Shown: positions 2,114 through 12,043, counted from the stretch's first letter. The stretch: 12,043 nucleotides of DNA from Verrucomicrobiota bacterium (GCA_008932965.1 WBXG01000053.1:1-12043); one strand, 5' to 3'. The notes: generated by a model from the letters alone, not told the origin. Numbers and translations: made by a program.

Positions 2114-3970
2114 ATGATTCAAAATAAACCTTCTTTTGAAAAAAATGTAGAAAGGCACTCGCTGCGAAAAAAGAACGGCTCCAAAAGTTTGGATCAGATT
2201 CTCTTATTTGGGCAAAACGTTCCTTCTAATAAAAGCCTCAAGGAGTGGGTTCAACAAGTTGCATTACTGACACTACCAGATTGTGTTTTCTGGTGTGATG
2301 GAAGTGAAGAAGAAAAAGAGTATTTGAATGAACGGGCTGTTGCTCAAGGAGTGCTTATAAAGCTGGATCAAAAAAAGTGGCCTGGCTGCTACTACCATCA
2401 CTCGAACCCTAATGATGTTGCACGAGTGGAACAGAAGACCTTTATTTGCTCAGAGCGCAAGGAGGAGGCAGGCCCCACAAATAACTGGGCTGAACCGCAA
2501 GAAATGTATTCTAAGCTTGAGGAGATACTTCGTGGTTCGATGAAGGGTCGCACTCTTTATGTGATTACGTATCTTATGGGTCCTATAGGTTCTTCGATGA
2601 CCAGGGTAGGGGTGGAAATTACAGATTCTATTTATGTGGTCCTCAATATGAGAATCATGACACGTATGGGGAAGGTGGCTTGGAATCATTTGGGGGATAG
2701 TTCAAATTTTAATCGAGGTATTCATGCATTGCTTGATTGTAATCCTGAAAGGCGTTTTATTTGTCACTTTCCACAAGACAACACGATTATTTCTGTCGGT
2801 TCTGGGTATGGGGGAAATGTCCTTTTAGGAAAAAAATGCCTGGCTTTGCGTATTGGATCCGACTTAGGACGCAGGGAGGGATGGCTAGCTGAACATATGT
2901 TGCTCCTCTGTTTGGAAGACCCTCAAGGAAAAAAGACATATGTGGCAGCGGCTTTTCCTTCATCCTGTGGAAAAACAAATTTCGCAATGATGATTCCCCC
3001 TGCAAACTTTGAAGGCTGGAAGGTAACTACCATTGGTGATGACATTGCTTGGATGAGACCAGGAGAGGATGGAAGGCTCTATGCTATCAATCCTGAAGCA
3101 GGGTATTTTGGGGTTGTTCCAGGAACCAATGAGAGTTCCAATTGGAATGCAATGTCTATGATAAAAAAAGATACTATTTTTACTAATGTCGCACGTACTC
3201 CAGATGGAGATCTCTGGTGGGAGGGAAAAGATAACGCCCCTCCTTTAGGACTAATCGATTGGAAAGGTGATTTATGGGACCCTTTGAGTGCTGAAAAAGC
3301 GGCCCATCCCAACAGTCGTTTTACAGCTCCTATGAAAAATAATTCTGCATTGGCCGAGGAAGTCTATTGGCCAGAAGGGGTGCCCATTAGTGCTATTATT
3401 TTTGGAGGTCGGCGAGCCAATACAATGCCACTAGTATTTCAAGCATTTGATTGGATTCATGGAGTCTATATGGGAGCTACAGCAGGGTCTGAAATGACAG
3501 CTGCTGCAGCCGGTGGATTAGGCCAGGTTCGCAGAGACCCTATGGCTATGTTGCCGTTTTGTGGTTATAATATGGGGAAATATTTTGATCGCTGGTTGCA
3601 AATGCAATATCAGATTAAAGAGTTGCCCTCTATTTTTCATGTCAATTGGTTTCGCAAGGATGATGAAGGGAATTTTCTCTGGCCTGGTTTTGGTGAAAAT
3701 ATGCGCGTCTTGCAATGGATCGTAGAACGTTGCCAAGGGAGTGCCAGTGCACTGGAGACTCCGATTGGATGGATGCCTAGTTATGAAGATATGAATATGG
3801 ATGGCATTGCTGGTGGGATGACAGCCGAACGGTTTGCAGCATTGCAAAAAATTGATCCTGCAGAATGGAAACAAGAGCTTATTCTTCAAGAAGAATTTTT
3901 CATGAAGCTCTATCCTGATGTGCCCAAAGAATTGATCTCTCAACGAGAATTATTAATTTCAAGATTATGA
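2114..3970 (+). CDS. pckG: Phosphoenolpyruvate carboxykinase (GTP-dependent)
   Basis: 618-aa ORF with GTP-PEPCK hallmarks: the kinase-1a/P-loop region AAAFPSSCGKTNFAMM, IGDDIAWMRPGEDGRL, NPEAGYFGVVPGTN, HPNSRFTAP and FHVNWFRKDDEGNFLWPGFGENMRVLQWI. The length is typical of the GTP class. Confidence 0.95.
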   Translation: MIQNKPSFEKNVERHSLRKKNGSKSLDQILLFGQNVPSNKSLKEWVQQVALLTLPDCVFWCDGSEEEKEYLNERAVAQGVLIKLDQKKWPGCYYHHSNPNDVARVEQKTFICSERKEEAGPTNNWAEPQEMYSKLEEILRGSMKGRTLYVITYLMGPIGSSMTRVGVEITDSIYVVLNMRIMTRMGKVAWNHLGDSSNFNRGIHALLDCNPERRFICHFPQDNTIISVGSGYGGNVLLGKKCLALRIGSDLGRREGWLAEHMLLLCLEDPQGKKTYVAAAFPSSCGKTNFAMMIPPANFEGWKVTTIGDDIAWMRPGEDGRLYAINPEAGYFGVVPGTNESSNWNAMSMIKKDTIFTNVARTPDGDLWWEGKDNAPPLGLIDWKGDLWDPLSAEKAAHPNSRFTAPMKNNSALAEEVYWPEGVPISAIIFGGRRANTMPLVFQAFDWIHGVYMGATAGSEMTAAAAGGLGQVRRDPMAMLPFCGYNMGKYFDRWLQMQYQIKELPSIFHVNWFRKDDEGNFLWPGFGENMRVLQWIVERCQGSASALETPIGWMPSYEDMNMDGIAGGMTAERFAALQKIDPAEWKQELILQEEFFMKLYPDVPKELISQRELLISRL

Positions 3971-5236: not shown

Positions 5237-5264
5237 GGAATGGAACCTATGGAATGGAACCTAT
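5237..5264. repeat. Exact 14-bp tandem duplication (ggaatggaacctat x2) overlapping the stop codon of the 5261-5539 ORF
   Basis: Read directly: 5237-5250 is identical to 5251-5264. Confidence 0.9.
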
Positions 5265-5539
5265 TTTTGTATTGGTATTTGAAATTCCGATGTGAGGTCA
5301 TGGAACACTTTTGTCTCTTTTACAATGGGAAATGCAACATGAAATAAGATAGCTATGACAAAGATACATCCTGTTAGAATGTAAGAAAATGAGAGCATGA
5401 CATCAAGGCATCCCAAAAAAAGTGGAATCAGAGCCGCCAGAAGGCATTGTGTTGGAGATAGACCTAATAATCCTACCGAAAAATACATAACCCCTGCAAT
5501 AGCAGTGGATCTAAGACAACGAAAAACAATAGACTCCAT
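5261..5539 (-). CDS. Hypothetical small membrane protein (about 3 TM helices)
   Basis: 92-aa ORF with three hydrophobic stretches: STAIAGVMYFSVGLLGL, LLAALIPLFLGCLDVML and ILTGCIFVIAILFHVAFPIV. I recognise no homolog, and it is short, so coding status is uncertain. Confidence 0.4.
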   Translation of the reverse strand: MESIVFRCLRSTAIAGVMYFSVGLLGLSPTQCLLAALIPLFLGCLDVMLSFSYILTGCIFVIAILFHVAFPIVKETKVFHDLTSEFQIPIQK

Positions 5540-6566: not shown

Positions 6567-7172
6567 CTAGCTAGGATCAGTAGAATATGGCATAAGGTCT
6601 AAAATAACTTGTTGTTTAGAAAAAGAAGTATCGACTATAAACGCTGCCATTCTTCCAGCTTTCTTAGTTACTTTAAGATGTTTTTCTACCAAGTGATAGT
6701 GAGGGCGATCATAATAGTCATCAAACAAGATAATAGTTCCCAATTTTGAAAAAATTAAACTTGCTAAAAAACTAGCAGCGCGAAATCGCCCATCGATGAG
6801 AATCAGATCAGGCAATTCTGATGAAGCTAACATTTCTTTCCAAGCTGTTATACAGTAGTTAGGCCAATTCTTCATTAGTGAATGATCTGCTGGGTGGCCC
6901 CATTCTTTTGTTGGGCCAATATTTGAATAGTAAATCTTAAGATCAATTTTCGGATAGAGCTCCTGGGTTTTTTGTTGAACTGCCTGTAAAAAATGAAGGT
7001 CGGAGTCAATCGAATGGATTGTTGAAACACCACACTCCGCTGCAAAGAGAGTGCTGCCTCCAGATCCATATTCAAGATAAACTTTTGTTTTTTGAAGAGA
7101 TTCTTTAAGGAGATCTATTCCTTCTCGTTCCATGTGTGGGAGTAAAGGGATAATAGGGTTGTTTGGATTCAT
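6567..7172 (-). CDS. Class I SAM-dependent methyltransferase-fold protein (Methyltransf_24/DUF579-like), probable sugar O-methyltransferase
   Basis: 201-aa ORF. The glycine-rich motif I is VYLEYGSGGSTLFAAE, followed by IHSIDSD (an acidic residue ending beta-2) and the later DLILIDGRFRAASF block. This arrangement is typical of small polysaccharide-associated O-methyltransferase-like proteins. The subfamily assignment is from memory and not verified. Confidence 0.6.
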   Translation of the reverse strand: MNPNNPIIPLLPHMEREGIDLLKESLQKTKVYLEYGSGGSTLFAAECGVSTIHSIDSDLHFLQAVQQKTQELYPKIDLKIYYSNIGPTKEWGHPADHSLMKNWPNYCITAWKEMLASSELPDLILIDGRFRAASFLASLIFSKLGTIILFDDYYDRPHYHLVEKHLKVTKKAGRMAAFIVDTSFSKQQVILDLMPYSTDPS

Positions 7173-7204
7173 TTTTATTTATTTATCAAAATAAGTGTCT
7201 TATT

Positions 7205-8119
7205 TCATTCAAAAACAACACTTAGAAGATCTTTTTTAACAGCTGGATAATCATTAATTTTTTGAGTAGGTTGGCCGTTTTCAAGAAGGTAGCATGAATA
7301 TCCATAGGATTTCATTTGGTCAATATATTGATATGATGTTGCATTAGATACTTTCATTAGCTGCGAAGGATGCAACTCCGATAAGATAGGTGGTTTTTTA
7401 ACTTTAAATAAAATTTTAGCACCTTTGAAGACTAAAGGTTCTGCACCCTCTACATCAATTTTTATAATATCAGGAAAAATATTTGGTAGAAGTTCATCCA
7501 GTGGTGCCGCTTTGACTTTAATAGCTTCTTGATTTGAAGAGGGGATTTCTCCTTTAAAAACAAAAGATCCCCCTGGATTATCAGTATGAAATCCTGAGTA
7601 GAGATTTAATTCCTCCCATTTATCTAATAGAGCATAGTTCCAGAGATGAACGCGATCATCCAACTTATTATGAGTCAAAGTGCGTTTAAGCATCTTTGCT
7701 GTTTCTGGTCGAGGCTCAAAAGCATAAATAGCACCTTCATCTCCAATGTGCTTAGCTGCTACTAACGTAAACCAACCTATATTAGCGCCAATATCAAAAA
7801 CAATACTTTGATCTTCTAACTTCGAAATAAAATAATCTGTTTCACTAGGTTCCCATGAATTATTCAAACATCCTTTCGAGACATAGTTATCAGACAAATC
7901 AATCCATTGTGTATAACAATCTAAGATATCGACAGCAACCCATTTTGAGTTAGTAAAACCAAATCCATTTTGATTCTTAAACTCACTTGAGTTCAAAAAT
8001 ATTTTTCTCAATTGGTTAAAATTTTCTAACTGTAGCTTTTGCGTTATTACTTCTTCAGATTCTGGAACTCTTCCGAGGATTGCTCGATAGCACCAAACTA
8101 TTTCTTCTCTTGTAACCAT
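7205..8119 (-). CDS. FkbM-family SAM-dependent methyltransferase with an N-terminal DUF4214-like module
   Basis: 304-aa ORF. FkbM hallmarks are VFDIGANIGWFTLVAAKH...IYAFEPRPETAKMLKRTL and IIKIDVEGAEPLVFKGA. The N-terminal ~50 aa MVTREEIVWCYRAILGRVPESEEVITQKLQLENFNQLRKIFLNSSEFKN (about 7970-8119) are the shared module, copy D. Confidence 0.85.
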   Translation of the reverse strand: MVTREEIVWCYRAILGRVPESEEVITQKLQLENFNQLRKIFLNSSEFKNQNGFGFTNSKWVAVDILDCYTQWIDLSDNYVSKGCLNNSWEPSETDYFISKLEDQSIVFDIGANIGWFTLVAAKHIGDEGAIYAFEPRPETAKMLKRTLTHNKLDDRVHLWNYALLDKWEELNLYSGFHTDNPGGSFVFKGEIPSSNQEAIKVKAAPLDELLPNIFPDIIKIDVEGAEPLVFKGAKILFKVKKPPILSELHPSQLMKVSNATSYQYIDQMKSYGYSCYLLENGQPTQKINDYPAVKKDLLSVVFE

Positions 8120-8137
8120 TTTAATGTTTATATTAAC

Positions 8138-9085
8138 TTATTTTTTAATAATAAAAGTATTGGAGAGATAACGGGCAGGATCACCAGTTGATCCATCTTC
8201 ACGTACTTCTAATAGTTGACATTGCGCATCAGCAATAAGAGAAAAAATAAGAGATTGTGGGAGAGCGTGCATCTGCATATCAAGCGGATGGTCTTTTGCA
8301 ATCCATTCTTTTGTATTAAAAGAATAGTCTTTGATATAGGTAGGCACTTGAAAAATGGCTATTCCTCCAGGAAGGAGAGAGGCTAAGGCCATTTTAATAA
8401 GATGACGTATGAGGGGAGGAGGATTATGTTGTAAGACAATCCTAGAGTAAAAGCAATGACACTTTTCTAATGGTTCCAACAAATCATCAGAACAAAGATG
8501 GAAATGACATTGAGAATATCCTTTTTCGACTGCTTTTTGTTTTGCGATTTCTAAATGTCCTTCAGAAATATCATAAGCATCCACCTGAGCAAAAAGACTA
8601 GCAAGCCCCATCGTCACACGTCCTACACCACATCCATATTCCACAATCTTTTTAGAGGATAAATCCTCCAAGGAATAATTTTTAAGAATCGTTTCTAAAT
8701 GAGATGCTTCGCCTTCACCAGATTTCCAAAAGTCTTCTTCGTAATTATTTAAGTTTTCGGGAAGAAAATTTTTATTGGTGAGTACAGAAAAGTGAGGTCC
8801 AATAATGCCTAGATGAGTCCAAGCCTCTTTGATTTTTCTAATACACGCTTGAAGCTCTTCTTCACTACACCCCATTAAAATATTATTTTTTGGCAATGTT
8901 AGTGGAAGATAGGTATTTCTTTCTTGGATATTAAATTTACTTTTAAACTCTTTTGAATCTAGGAATATTTTCCTCAGTTGATCAAAGTTTTCTAATTTCA
9001 TCTTCCCAGCAATGACTTCTTCTGATTCTGGAATCCTACCAAGAATCGTTCTGTAGCACCAAATAACTTCCTCCCGAGTAATCAT
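8138..9085 (-). CDS. Class I SAM-dependent methyltransferase (Methyltransf_11/25-like) with an N-terminal DUF4214-like module
   Basis: 315-aa ORF. Motif I is IVEYGCGVGRVTMGLA, followed by VDAYDISEGHLEIAKQKA and a post-motif GGIAIFQVP. The N-terminal ~50 aa MITREEVIWCYRTILGRIPESEEVIAGKMKLENFDQLRKIFLDSKEFKS (about 8936-9085) are the shared module, copy C. Confidence 0.8.
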   Translation of the reverse strand: MITREEVIWCYRTILGRIPESEEVIAGKMKLENFDQLRKIFLDSKEFKSKFNIQERNTYLPLTLPKNNILMGCSEEELQACIRKIKEAWTHLGIIGPHFSVLTNKNFLPENLNNYEEDFWKSGEGEASHLETILKNYSLEDLSSKKIVEYGCGVGRVTMGLASLFAQVDAYDISEGHLEIAKQKAVEKGYSQCHFHLCSDDLLEPLEKCHCFYSRIVLQHNPPPLIRHLIKMALASLLPGGIAIFQVPTYIKDYSFNTKEWIAKDHPLDMQMHALPQSLIFSLIADAQCQLLEVREDGSTGDPARYLSNTFIIKK

Positions 9086-9509
9086 AATATTAATTTTATT
9101 AGTTATTTTTATTTTATTAGTTTCATTTTTCCTCTAGTTTTTTTAATAGAGATTTAAATTCTAGTGATTTTAAAAAAGCAGTTCGTAATTGTTCAAAATT
9201 TTCTAGTTTCATTTTTTCAGAAATGACTTTCTCTGATTCTGGAACCCTACCAAAAATCGTTCTGTAGCACCAAATAACTTCCTCTCGAGTAATCATAACA
9301 TTAATTTCGTTAGTTATTTTTATTTTATTAGCTTCATTTTTTTCCTCTAGTTTTTTTAATAGAGATTTAAATTCTAGTGATTTTAAAAAAGCAGTTCGTA
9401 ATTGTTCAAAATTTTCAACTTGCATATTTTGATCAATGACTTCCTCGGACTCAGGTTCCCTGCCGAGAATAGTACGGTAGCACCAAATAACTTCTTCTTT
9501 TGTAATTAG
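9086..9509 (-). repeat. Tandem ~212-bp coding repeat (two full units of 213 and 211 bp); a third partial unit continues into 8936-9085 across the gene boundary
   Basis: Unit 1 is 9297-9509 (213 bp, module A plus linker NEANKIKITNEINV). Unit 2 is 9086-9296 (211 bp, module B plus a degenerate linker containing the GT17 stop). A 73-bp stretch is perfectly identical between units (9131-9203 = 9344-9416). The array continues with the N-terminal module of the 8138-9085 gene. Confidence 0.9.
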
Positions 9510-10457
9510 ACCAGAATGGGAAAAGCGAAAAAGATGGTAATAAGAGGGTAGATCCTTCAGTACAGGAGAAGGAATATTTGAATTTAACTCATTAGTAATG
9601 ATATCTAAAAGTTGTTTGTGAAGTTGATCATTATAGGGCTTTAAACTTGATATTTGATTTTCTCGTGTAATCGCTAATGGTTTTGCATCATTTGAATTAG
9701 AACTATTTTTACTGGCTCCATGAGTAAAATTAGCAACTTTATATTCAACACACTTTTTTCCTCCAAAATAGGTTAAATGCCAACCTGCATTCTCAAGTAA
9801 TATTACTTTTTGATTTTTATAAAAAGGACTGATGTCATATCTTCTTCCTGGATTAACAATTTTTTGTGAGTTTATTAATTCATTACTTTTATCTAAATTG
9901 CAATATTTTCTCCCTGCCCCTGCAATATTATTTCTTAGTTCTACTGGGAAATATTTTCCAAAGATATTATAACGAATTGCAATAGAACCGAGCCATTTAT
10001 ATTTTTTATCTGAAGTATTACCTTCAATAAAAAACTTTCTGATATCCTGTTGAAAAAGGTATATTTCATCTTCTATACAACTTTTTGATACTTCTTGAAC
10101 AACACTGTTTTTTGGTATTTCATCAACATCAGAAATGATAACAAGGTCATCATTAGATAATTCTAACTCTAATAATGCAGGCATGATTTGATTCTTATGA
10201 TAAATTTCAAGCCATTGTCGATTTTTTTCCGTATCTGAAATAAGTGGAGGTAGATTCATTACCTTAAAATGATGAATTTTAGATAGAAATGCAGAAAACC
10301 TTTCTTTGTTTTCATCAAAATAAAAAGGTTTTTTTATTCCGGCAAAAGTTTTGGCACATTCGACAAGAACAAATTTATCTACGATATTCCAGAGTTCTTT
10401 TAGTCTAATTTCTAATGTATCTAATTCATTAAAAAACGGAAAAGCGTCAATGATCAT
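9123..10457 (-). CDS. GT17-like glycosyltransferase (GnT-III-like, beta-1,4-N-acetylglucosaminyltransferase family) with two C-terminal DUF4214-like modules
   Basis: 444-aa ORF. The N-terminus MIIDAFPFFNELDTLEIRLKELWNIVDKFVLVECAKTFAGIKKPFYF, the DLVIISDVDEIP (DxD-type) segment and the later GWHLTYFGG block match my memory of bacterial CAZy GT17 members. Residues ~317-373 (9339-9509) and 388-444 (9126-9296) are shared-module copies A and B, joined by a 14-aa linker. Confidence 0.7.
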   Translation of the reverse strand: MIIDAFPFFNELDTLEIRLKELWNIVDKFVLVECAKTFAGIKKPFYFDENKERFSAFLSKIHHFKVMNLPPLISDTEKNRQWLEIYHKNQIMPALLELELSNDDLVIISDVDEIPKNSVVQEVSKSCIEDEIYLFQQDIRKFFIEGNTSDKKYKWLGSIAIRYNIFGKYFPVELRNNIAGAGRKYCNLDKSNELINSQKIVNPGRRYDISPFYKNQKVILLENAGWHLTYFGGKKCVEYKVANFTHGASKNSSNSNDAKPLAITRENQISSLKPYNDQLHKQLLDIITNELNSNIPSPVLKDLPSYYHLFRFSHSGLITKEEVIWCYRTILGREPESEEVIDQNMQVENFEQLRTAFLKSLEFKSLLKKLEEKNEANKIKITNEINVMITREEVIWCYRTIFGRVPESEKVISEKMKLENFEQLRTAFLKSLEFKSLLKKLEEK

Positions 10458-10505
10458 TTTTATATTAATTTAAATAATTTATTTATAACATTGAGGAAAT
10501 ATTTT

Positions 10506-12043
10506 TTAATCATTTGCATGAATAACTCTTTTTAAAAATGCTTCCCATTGAGGCAATATTTCCTCTTGAGAGTAGCGAGAGGAGACTTCATCTCCTTGTT
10601 TTTTGAGTTCCGCTTGGACTTCCTGTGCGTTGGGTGCGTAGAGGACTTTTTTGAGAGCATGCACAAGGCTCATTGTTGAGTAAGGATTAAAATATTCTGC
10701 TGCTCGTTCATAGATTTCGCGGTGAACGGGAATATCAGAGGCTATGGCTATTCCACCTGACATCATGGCTTCGACTCCTGAAAAGTCAAAGCCTTCAAAG
10801 AGGCTGGGACAGACGGTTGCTGCTGCATGACTATAGAGAACACGTAGATCGGGAGCTGGGACAGAATTCAACATAAAAAGCTCACCCCGATCGATCCATG
10901 TTTTGAGCGTTTTAACGATGGCGGTATAACCCCAACCTAAGGTGCCAACGATGACTAATTTTATATTTGGATTAATTTCTTCTTTGAGAATTTCCCAAGC
11001 AGCTAACACACGCGTATGATTTTTGCGCGGTTCAATGGTAGAGACCACAAGAAGGTATTGAAACTCTTTATCAAAAAGATGCCGTTTGAAGAAATTTTCT
11101 TGCTCACGCAAATTTAAAAACTCAGGAGAAACTCCTAATCCCTTGGCTTCTGGGTCAAAGCCATAAATTCTAGAACGAATAATTCCACGCACCCGTTCAA
11201 AAGAGGTCGTCTCTTTAAAATAATGATGCGAGACGCTATTGTGGATCGTGACGACGCGATCGGCTATTTTCGGGAAAAGTCTTAATAAATCTTGCCGTGA
11301 TGATTCTGAAACGCAAGCAAACCAGGCTTTTGATTTGACATTGCTAACCAAAGCATGAATGTGCGTTGCCTGATGACTAGAAACGTCATTGATAGTGTGC
11401 GGCATGAAAATGGGAATCGCATCATGATAACGAACGACGAATTTAGTATTTTTACTGATGCGTGCTGGATAAGGAGTTTGCGCAATAAAGATATCAATAT
11501 CTTGTGTTGCTATTTTTGGATATTTTGGTGAAAAGCTCCAATTGAGTGAACCGAGCCCTGCCATATGCAACGTGAACCACGAAACCGAGCAAATACGATG
11601 AGGTGCGCGCGTGATAGTATCAAACTCTACCGGAGGTAGTGTCTTTGCAAAAAAGGAGCGCCATATAAAATCTTCAAAGGAGGATGGATCGAAAGAAGTT
11701 AACTTAATTTTTCCGATATTTGTGAAGAGCGAAAGTTGCAGAGCCATGGCTTCTGAGCGTTTATCGAACCAGTCCATCCATTTCTCCAGTAGTGTCAAAT
11801 AAGGCCGTTCCTTCATCGAAATGATAACATTAGAATATTTGGCATAACGTGCTGCTGGTTTTAGTAAACGCACCCAAAATCCTCCAATTCCTGATTGTTT
11901 TATTCCTTTAGCTATTTTGTGAGTGGGGCCTTGCAGCAGTCCTTCAAGATGAACTGAAGGAATCTTACTTAAATTAGAAAAAAGGAGACGTGTTTCTTGT
12001 GGGATACCTGCAAAACCTTCTGTGGCAGGACGTAGTTCTAAAA
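10506..12043 (-). CDS. GT4-family (GT-B fold) glycosyltransferase; 5' end beyond the window
   Basis: The track starts this ORF at a GTG (11873). My hand translation shows the same frame stays open to the window edge: LELRPATEGFAGIPQETRLLFSNLSKIPSVHLEGLLQGPTHKIAKGIKQSGIGGFW-VRLLK.... The GIPQETRLLF segment looks like a GT N-terminal nucleotide-sugar-fold start. The C-terminal half has the GT4 signature LLVVSTIEPRKN...VIVGTLGWGY...PSLFEGFDFSGVEAMMSGGIAIASDIPVHREI (EX7E motif). Confidence 0.85.
   Translation of the reverse strand, partial: LELRPATEGFAGIPQETRLLFSNLSKIPSVHLEGLLQGPTHKIAKGIKQSGIGGFWVRLLKPAARYAKYSNVIISMKERPYLTLLEKWMDWFDKRSEAMALQLSLFTNIGKIKLTSFDPSSFEDFIWRSFFAKTLPPVEFDTITRAPHRICSVSWFTLHMAGLGSLNWSFSPKYPKIATQDIDIFIAQTPYPARISKNTKFVVRYHDAIPIFMPHTINDVSSHQATHIHALVSNVKSKAWFACVSESSRQDLLRLFPKIADRVVTIHNSVSHHYFKETTSFERVRGIIRSRIYGFDPEAKGLGVSPEFLNLREQENFFKRHLFDKEFQYLLVVSTIEPRKNHTRVLAAWEILKEEINPNIKLVIVGTLGWGYTAIVKTLKTWIDRGELFMLNSVPAPDLRVLYSHAAATVCPSLFEGFDFSGVEAMMSGGIAIASDIPVHREIYERAAEYFNPYSTMSLVHALKKVLYAPNAQEVQAELKKQGDEVSSRYSQEEILPQWEAFLKRVIHAND

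Follow-up and report, generated by a model that had tools for sequence, protein, structure and literature searches.

The minus strand of a 12,043-nt stretch of Verrucomicrobiota DNA (GCA_008932965.1 WBXG01000053.1:1-12043; hereafter the window) carries a gene for a family 17 glycosyltransferase (GT17) directly followed by a methyltransferase (MT) gene. A tandem repeat crosses the boundary between the two, and a 2-nt difference in a run of A decides whether a unit of this repeat is read through or ends in a stop codon. The locus thus raises the question of how the boundary came about, and of whether the two enzymes are, or once were, made as a single polypeptide. The earlier note on this DNA had left three explanations side by side, namely a recent gene fission, a sequencing or assembly indel, and a switchable fusion. 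The structural reading of that note was sound, whereas none of its three explanations is favoured as stated, and below we set out a fourth.

Genes and tandem repeat at the GT17/MT boundary

The minus strand holds an operon-like run of genes (Table 1) composed of a GT4 glycosyltransferase gene that is cut by the window end, GT17, MT, an FkbM methyltransferase gene, and genes for a 201-aa protein and a TPR protein. As examined by Pfam, the GT17 product belongs to Glycosyltransferase family 17 (PF04724, 96.4 bits against a cut-off of 26), and nearly all of its 268 homologues, the best of which shares 45% identity, carry the same annotation. Its catalytic domain covers about residues 1-316 and ends at the motif YYHLFRFSHS, after which come module 1 (M1), linker L1 and module 2 (M2); the homologues P0002 and P0008 stop just past YYHLF. 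The MT product is a class I SAM-dependent methyltransferase, with Pfam matches to Methyltransf_25 (5.1e-11, 43.5 bits against 27) and Methyltransf_23 (35 bits against 27). A protein identical to GT17, P0001 (KAB2643325.1), comes from a Verrucomicrobia MAG. Exact-protein look-ups found no record for GT17/P0001 or the TPR protein, and those with the MT, FkbM and 201-aa proteins returned only one contig, L001. The GC content was 26-35% across positions 7000-10500, compared with 41-46% in the flanks. In addition, tRNA and Rfam scans of the whole window were empty, and a promoter/terminator scan of the GT17-MT interval gave nothing above shuffled expectation.

The tandem array that the earlier note had placed across the GT17/MT boundary was recovered by Tandem Repeats Finder with 87% matches and a score of 779, which is far above chance, and it runs from the 3' end of GT17 into the 5' end of MT. 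Offsets between its copies were 213 and 211 in an offset scan, and the copies lie head to tail at a constant period, as in a tandem segmental duplication. Specifically, L1 (9297-9338) reads AATGAAGCTAATAAAATAAAAATAACTAACGAAATTAATGTT, and the GT17 stop together with spacer S2 (9086-9125) reads TGAAACTAATAAAATAAAAATAACTAATAAAATTAATATT. The two differ by 4 substitutions and by the length of the A-run, which is A7 at 9337-9343 and A5 at 9126-9130, with the two extra A's at the 5' edge of L1. Hence, as had been claimed, the spacer is homologous to the in-frame linker of GT17, and the 2-nt difference in the A-run makes the stop. When A5 was changed to A7, a single 773-aa open reading frame was obtained, and a change to A4 gave one of 772 aa, each with a terminal stop only, in agreement with the ~770 aa proposed before. 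The MT frame is open upstream only as far as the TAG at 9134-9136, which is the nearest stop, likewise as described. The perfect identity between units had been given as 73 bp; the exact tract is present, and its length is 78 bp when the shared A5 is counted (9339-9416 = 9126-9203). We agree that this tract indicates recent recombination or gene conversion. When GT17 residues 310-444 were modelled from a single sequence, L1 was non-helical (pLDDT < 50) and lay between two helical modules, which is weak evidence for two modules joined by L1.

Table 1. Features at and around the GT17/MT boundary, in coordinates of the window
Feature	Position	Strand	Basis
GT17 gene, 444 aa	9123-10457	-	ORF; PF04724
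Class I SAM-dependent methyltransferase (MT) gene, 315 aa	8138-9085	-	Pfam Methyltransf_25
FkbM-family methyltransferase gene, 304 aa	7205-8119	-	PF05050, 9.2e-18 (Pfam)
Low-GC (28%) variable cassette	9112-10521	-	blastn synteny, GC values, L002 gene list
Tandem array, 213-bp unit, 2.5 copies	8978-9498	.	Tandem Repeats Finder and offset scan
Module 1 (M1), GT17 C-terminal	9339-9509	-	Module HMM, E = 1.6e-35
Linker L1, 14 codons, NEANKIKITNEINV	9297-9338	-	Aligns with S2: 4 substitutions and 2-nt indel
Module 2 (M2), mosaic, GT17 C-terminus	9126-9296	-	Matches to M1/M3; ATG at 9294-9296
A5 run (9126-9130), then GT17 stop TGA (9123-9125)	9123-9130	-	Read from sequence; same in L001
Spacer S2, 37 nt, A/T-rich MT leader without Shine-Dalgarno	9086-9122	-	Leader style and L002 homology
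Module 3 (M3), first 57 codons of MT	8915-9085	-	Module HMM, 1.8e-37
Module 4 (M4), first 57 codons of FkbM methyltransferase	7949-8119	-	Module HMM, 2.9e-36

The ~57-aa module and its family

The repeated unit encodes a module of ~57 aa that is present in four copies in the window (M1-M4), the last of which is more diverged than the others and was not part of the earlier note. The module follows the pattern [M]-[IV]-T-R-E-E-V-I-W-C-Y-R-x-I-L-G-R-x-P-E-S-E-E-V-I...L-E-N-F-x-Q-L-R-x-x-F-L-x-S-x-E-F-K. When isolated modules were scanned with Pfam, M1-M3 gave no match, M4 gave a sub-threshold match to DUF4214 (E = 0.032, 14.7 bits against a cut-off of 23.2), and none reached the curated threshold of PF13946 or PF00427. 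When 1.84 billion proteins were searched with a profile made from the four copies, at least 895 cluster representatives matched at E <= 1e-3, of which 86 had E <= 1e-10; of note for annotation, this widespread subfamily escapes the current Pfam models. Among 119 relatives from the profile search, the module region had a Pfam match to DUF4214 in 16 and to PBS_linker_poly in 18, and the partner domains included class I methyltransferases (29), FkbM (16), sulfotransferases (5) and pyruvyl transferases (4). As modelled by AlphaFold (pLDDT 86.6), the module consists of four short helices, and the top 30 PDB matches of the model in Foldseek were almost all PF00427 (TMq mostly 0.7-0.8, rmsd 1-2 A), with E-values of ~1 for this very small domain. 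Given the transitive sequence link provided by the profile relatives and the common fold, the module is a short, divergent member of the DUF4214/PBS-linker (phycobilisome-linker) superfamily and forms a distinct subfamily of it. It has in common with DUF4214 (PF13946) and PF00427 the motif Y-R-x-[IL]-L-G-R-x-P-[ED] ... L-R-x-x-F-x-x-S-x-E-F, a matching fold, attachment to polysaccharide-modifying enzymes and tandem occurrence. In contrast, the modules of the window score below the Pfam thresholds and are about 50 residues long, compared with 72 positions in the DUF4214 model, and their subfamily typically sits at residue 1 of methyltransferases. A DUF4214 protein was reported to bind O-antigen (10.64898/2026.09.02.748959, a 2026 preprint), and by analogy the module may function in glycan or partner binding.

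Tandem modules are common in the family, as two or more were found in 57 of 145 representatives, with a maximum of five. For example, P0132, P0133 and P0134 have 3-5 modules ahead of the same MT family, and P0137 has 3 ahead of FkbM. The module begins at residues 1-3 in 67 of the 217 modules of these 145 representatives. Proteins with a single N-terminal module (n = 56) had a median length of 314 aa, indicating that the 315-aa MT of the window has the canonical architecture. Note that stand-alone module proteins of 63-101 aa (P0124-P0130) were considered as proof of a free-module intermediate and rejected as such; at least P0124 resembles a truncated MT.

Origin of module 2 and of linker L1

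Stand-alone MT homologues at 48-50% identity, from 12 soil-metagenome loci and one Gammaproteobacteria MAG, begin MGVSADAVTWGYRFFLGRDPES with the same Met, and GGAGG lies 7 nt upstream of their ATG. This start and the family architecture together indicate that the Met before the module is the ancestral MT start codon. The spacer S2 in front of it is of the same style as the other leaders in the window, which are A/T-rich and free of a Shine-Dalgarno sequence, and its 37 nt compare with spacers of 48, 18, 32 and 15 nt. When metagenomes and genomes were scanned with the MT protein, one close relative was obtained, a Chthoniobacterales MAG from Deming Lake (GCA_049314455.1; L002, L015), the remaining matches being the homologues at 48-50% identity; the strain of the window itself came up in neither scan. 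Homology of L002 to the window begins at 9111, inside S2, as examined by blastn. At the three L1/S2 differences that could be aligned by hand, in a short alignment anchored on AACTAATAA, L002 has the S2 state; a MAFFT alignment of L1, S2 and L002 was ambiguous and differed from the hand alignment. On these sequence comparisons, MT seems to have kept its ancestral start and, in front of it, its ancestral A/T-rich leader.

M2 is a hybrid of two parental repeats with one switch point. Its 5' 93 nt match M3 at 83 of 93 positions and M1 at 68, and its 3' 78 nt match M1 at all 78 positions and M3 at 47; this mosaic is the product expected of unequal recombination between M1 and M3. Of the 123 internal modules of the family, only 2 have a Met at module position 1, indicating that the ATG at 9294-9296 inside GT17 is a vestigial, or fossil, start codon. 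M1 is probably native to GT17, given that the nearest GT17 homologues, P0005 and P0006, have a DUF4214 domain at the same place, after the GT17 domain and past the YYHLF end. The divergence between copies was uneven, with 0 differences in the 78 positions of the exact tract and 14 in 133 positions elsewhere (Fisher p = 0.0025). A single recent event is thus insufficient, and later conversion or a two-step history is needed.

We propose that, in an operon for polysaccharide modification, the GT17 C-terminus, the MT N-terminus and the FkbM N-terminus would each have borne one module. Unequal homologous recombination between M1 and M3 would have duplicated the 211-213-bp segment between two crossover points, which runs from the 3' part of M1 through the stop and the A/T-rich MT leader to the MT start codon with the first ~31 codons, and the product would be the hybrid M2 with a copy of the leader on each side. 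In the copy upstream of M2, an A-run two bases longer (A7) would have abolished the stop and turned the leader into a flexible linker of 14 residues and the start into an internal Met, so that GT17 would have come to end in two modules. The downstream copy would have retained A5-TGA, the leader and the ATG, and the 444-aa GT17 and the 315-aa MT would accordingly be two proteins from one transcript, with MT initiating at its own ancestral start. Later gene conversion, or ongoing recombination between the repeats, would account for the perfect tract of 78 bp.

A history in which the leader was captured as coding sequence takes two events (the duplication and A5 to A7) and is therefore favoured over fission, which takes three (an earlier fusion, the duplication and A7 to A5). 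The direction of the A-run change is inferred, and no orthologue of the GT17 3' end by which it could be polarised was found in the collections searched, the nearest GT17 homologue being the one at 45% identity. We consider the full leader-capture account, including this direction, to be probable, with appreciable room for doubt.

Arrays of domain repeats grow by unequal homologous recombination between paralogous repeats, for example in surface proteins and glycosyltransferases. The locus resembles such arrays in having crossovers inside two homologous modules, a hybrid new module and a long exact tract, and contig L001 is consistent with the product that is one unit shorter. It differs from them in that the modules come from two different genes and that a stop, a leader and a start codon were carried into a coding region. 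There is also a likeness to Rosetta-stone cases of fusion and fission, as adjacent enzymes of the same pathway are parted by a single stop and a frame difference and have fused counterparts (P0278-P0280; P0009, a GT17-FkbM protein; P0122, in which a GT-A-like domain precedes MT). Unlike in those cases, GT17 would have gained only the leader and the first ~31 codons of its neighbour, not the enzyme. The locus is, in this respect, an ordinary case of repeat-array growth with partial fusion, in which the process is known and the module subfamily had been missed by Pfam. If the leader-capture account is true, the window is a clean snapshot of the birth of a multi-module tail, with the crossover product, the translated former leader and the fossil start still legible, and conserved terminal modules common to neighbouring glycan-modifying enzymes can serve as recombination handles in polysaccharide loci. 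Annotators should leave the GT17/MT boundary as it stands and not "repair" it as if it were a frameshift.

Fused relatives and competing explanations

The earlier note had proposed a comparison with fused or split versions in related genomes. In the sole syntenic relative, L002, the MT is indeed fused, and its partner is a glycosyltransferase that is not homologous to GT17. L002 shares with the window a nucleotide identity of 94% in GT4, 92% in MT and 82% in PEPCK (blastn). In place of the GT17 cassette it has a GT90 gene, whose product has two N-terminal modules of its own, and a 331-aa GT-A-like domain, which continues in frame through the leader into M3-MT to give the 646-aa P0122. This fusion depends on the A8 run at 10959-10966 of L002, since with A7 or A9 the reading frame would end 20-30 nt short of the MT ATG. 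Fused forms are thus tolerated in this lineage. Note that the L002 fusion also counts against the leader-capture account, in that a fused form could have been ancestral. When the hypothetical 773-aa fusion was used as a query against 5.8 billion clusters, no protein with both halves at high identity was found, and the 90%-identity clusters of GT17 and MT held no GT17-MT fusion. The homologues do occur as one polypeptide elsewhere, in distant multidomain proteins with GT17 and MT (P0278-P0280 and P0093, 31-34% identity), and no close fused orthologue was among them.

The A5 run could be a miscall that affects what is really a single gene, or the L1-M2 unit and the copy number could result from misassembly or strain mixture. 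The window does derive from a metagenome assembly, the 78-bp exact repeat is longer than common k-mer sizes, and L001 (JGI 3300027969) joins M1-specific sequence straight to A5-TGA-leader-MT, a junction that is absent from the window. However, A5-TGA is found again in this independent contig, which showed 0 mismatches to the window over 2586 nt, and the 444-aa and 315-aa products are on record from 2 and 3 contigs, respectively; a homopolymer sequencing error, one of the explanations offered before, is therefore unlikely, the more so as a 2-nt error in a run of 5-7 nt is atypical of short reads. Furthermore, L1 and the 5' part of M2 differ from their paralogues at 14 positions, which argues for real reads and against a duplicated S2/M3 assembly, and the assembler output requires reads with both the M2-left to R and the R to L1 junctions. 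As to copy number, which comes from short-read assembly, the L1-M2 unit is missing from the path of L001, which ends 15 nt upstream of the repeat and is either a real allele one module shorter or a collapse over the 78-bp repeat. Altogether, we regard an artefact as quite improbable. Somewhat less so, though still unlikely, is the recent fission suggested by the earlier note, according to which an ancestral GT17-M1-linker-M2-linker-M3-MT protein of ~773 aa was split when A7 became A5 and made the TGA, MT re-initiating at a former internal Met. An uninterrupted frame of that length does return with A7, single polypeptides with 3-5 modules and MT exist (P0132-P0134), as do GT17+MT proteins in other lineages, and the syntenic relative has its GT-A-like domain fused to the same MT. 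Yet fission requires one event more than leader capture, because a fusion that absorbed the leader and start codon must come first, and it is thus less parsimonious than the reverse. A start before the module is the norm for MT throughout its family, and S2 looks like one of the operon's normal leaders. Moreover, in the hand alignment (MAFFT being ambiguous), the changes fall in L1 and the outgroup state is found in S2, which under fission should be the decaying copy, and there is no fused relative of the window's GT17 on record.

Homopolymer tracts are well known as contingency loci in surface-glycan genes of Campylobacter, Helicobacter, Neisseria and Haemophilus, and the window is similar: the locus is one of glycan modification, a homopolymer lies where the frame changes, and a change of 1-2 nt alters the products. 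Some cells or ribosomes might accordingly make a ~773-aa GT17-MT protein, either by phase variation, by transcriptional slippage, or by a +1/-2 shift at GAG GAA AAA UGA. The A-run is the only place where both frames are open, a -2 slip of tRNA-Lys on A5 re-pairs perfectly and yields EEK-NETNK as read from the sequence, an A8 run at the equivalent junction of L002 sets fused versus split, and surface-polysaccharide loci belong to a gene class in which phase variation is common (PMC3711429). The tract lengths used as criteria are, however, at least 7 nt in screens for phase variation and at least 8 nt for transcriptional realignment (PMC3711429). The A5 run at the frame transition is below these slippage-associated lengths and short of the hypermutable tract of ~7-8 nt or more that marks a phase-variable locus, and A/T runs of 7-8 nt are scattered through both loci without enrichment at the junctions. 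The run is A5 in the window, in L001 and in the protein records alike, that is, in every available contig, and in these 2-3 contigs no length polymorphism was seen. MT has its own conserved start, so that fusion is unnecessary for its expression; whereas contingency loci turn a gene ON or OFF, a change of the tract here would choose between one fused product and two separate ones. In prfB, a Shine-Dalgarno-like element precedes the site CUU UGA C at which the +1 programmed frameshift takes place. The junction is loosely similar, in that a potentially slippery codon is followed by a stop in the A site and a purine-rich GAGG is found 2 nt 5' of the AAA codon; the candidate frameshift sequence is GAGGAAAAATGAAAC. 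The codon and the spacing differ from those of prfB, however, no gene in the window uses a Shine-Dalgarno sequence, and GAGGAAAAA, including the GAGG, is merely the LEEK codons, which are ordinary coding sequence in the paralogous unit 1 as well. Downstream of the GT17 stop, no stable RNA structure (z = +0.66) and no Rfam match was found, and the combination of slippery site and stimulatory element that defines a programmed frameshift is thus not seen here. A literature search on the Campylobacter cgtA/neuA fusion gave nothing usable, and we do not rely on that precedent. The switchable fusion of the earlier note, for which there was also no fused variant, thus found no positive support, and we judge it very improbable. 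A fixed arrangement of two genes, in contrast, is highly likely overall.

The A-runs at junctions between a glycosyltransferase and a module-first MT might be read more broadly as a toggle between fusion and fission in a freshwater Verrucomicrobia lineage, a notion to which we attach very little weight. On such a reading, the window with A5 is split, its paralogue with A7 is fused, and the syntenic relative with A8 is fused. The junction would be of wider interest only if the A-run varied and thereby switched between fused and split forms. Slippage in replication or translation would then choose between tethered and separate enzymes, with an effect on the processivity of glycan modification or on its stoichiometry and not as an on/off switch of a gene.

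Module copy number and the glycosyltransferase–methyltransferase junction

We compared the junction between the GT17 glycosyltransferase and methyltransferase (MT) genes in the window with that in L002, the syntenic Chthoniobacterales MAG from Deming Lake (GCA_049314455.1). A run of eight A residues was found in L002 exactly where a 331-aa GT-A-like domain meets the module-first MT (see table below). Given this A8 run, the GT-A-like domain and the MT form a single 646-aa ORF (P0122), and a run of A7 or A9 in its place would lead to a stop 20–30 nt ahead of the MT ATG.

The module number at this junction was also compared with that in a JGI contig, L001 (Ga0209191_1028828). Nucleotides 1–96 of L001 align with window 9339–9431 and 9123–9203; sequence specific to module 1 of GT17 is directly joined to the A5 run, the TGA stop of GT17, the leader and MT, and the unit comprising the in-frame linker and module 2 is skipped. 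Elsewhere, L001 is identical to the window, with 0 mismatches in 2586 nt. The contig represents an allele with one module or, alternatively, a repeat that collapsed in assembly.

Within GT17, a fossil ATG retains a leader nearly identical to that of MT, and a free 57-aa module peptide might, in principle, arise by internal initiation at this codon. Furthermore, Phe replaces the Leu of the LGR motif in module 2 (TIFGR), a position at which 116 of 119 family members have Leu, hinting at relaxed constraint on this extra module.

Coordinates of features in the window and related loci
Feature	Sequence	Position	Strand
92-aa hydrophobic ORF, in ~780-nt gap between convergent genes	window	5261–5539	-
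Fossil ATG in GT17	window	9294–9296	
Leader at fossil ATG	window	9297–9338	
Phe in LGR motif of module 2	window	9252–9254	
A8 run	L002 (= L015)	10959–10966	
Variable cassette	window	9112–10521	
Variable cassette	L002	7892–10970	
Start of module-first gene	L002	7963–8364	
Start of module-first gene	L011	4196–4360	
Start of module-first gene	L012	5054–5218	

Module-first genes and the cassette boundary

The module opens further genes in related loci; two N-terminal copies are present in the GT90 gene of L002, and one copy lies at the start of the gene following MT in the soil loci (L011 and L012). The FkbM methyltransferase of L002 is split into 162-aa and 50-aa ORFs (L002 11960–12760 vs. window 7529–7633), and lacks ~110 nt of the window FkbM sequence.

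The GC content of the variable cassettes is ~28% in both genomes, whereas that of the conserved flanking GT4 gene is ~41%. The right-hand swap boundary of the cassette precedes the MT ATG by 26 nt, which suggests that recombination uses the region of the module and leader as its anchor.

Gene starts and small features

No Shine-Dalgarno motif was found within 30 nt upstream of the start codon in any of the eight complete window genes, and A/T runs precede the ATG in all genes of the low-GC island. The PEPCK stop overlaps the start of the next gene by 4 nt (ATGA, window 3967–3970); the 301-aa product of the latter had no Pfam match.

The 92-aa ORF is intact in L002 with 76% amino-acid identity, where it is uncalled as a gene, and probably encodes a real small membrane protein. 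Its 3' end is overlapped by a perfect 14-bp tandem repeat, two copies of GGAATGGAACCTAT (window 5237–5264).
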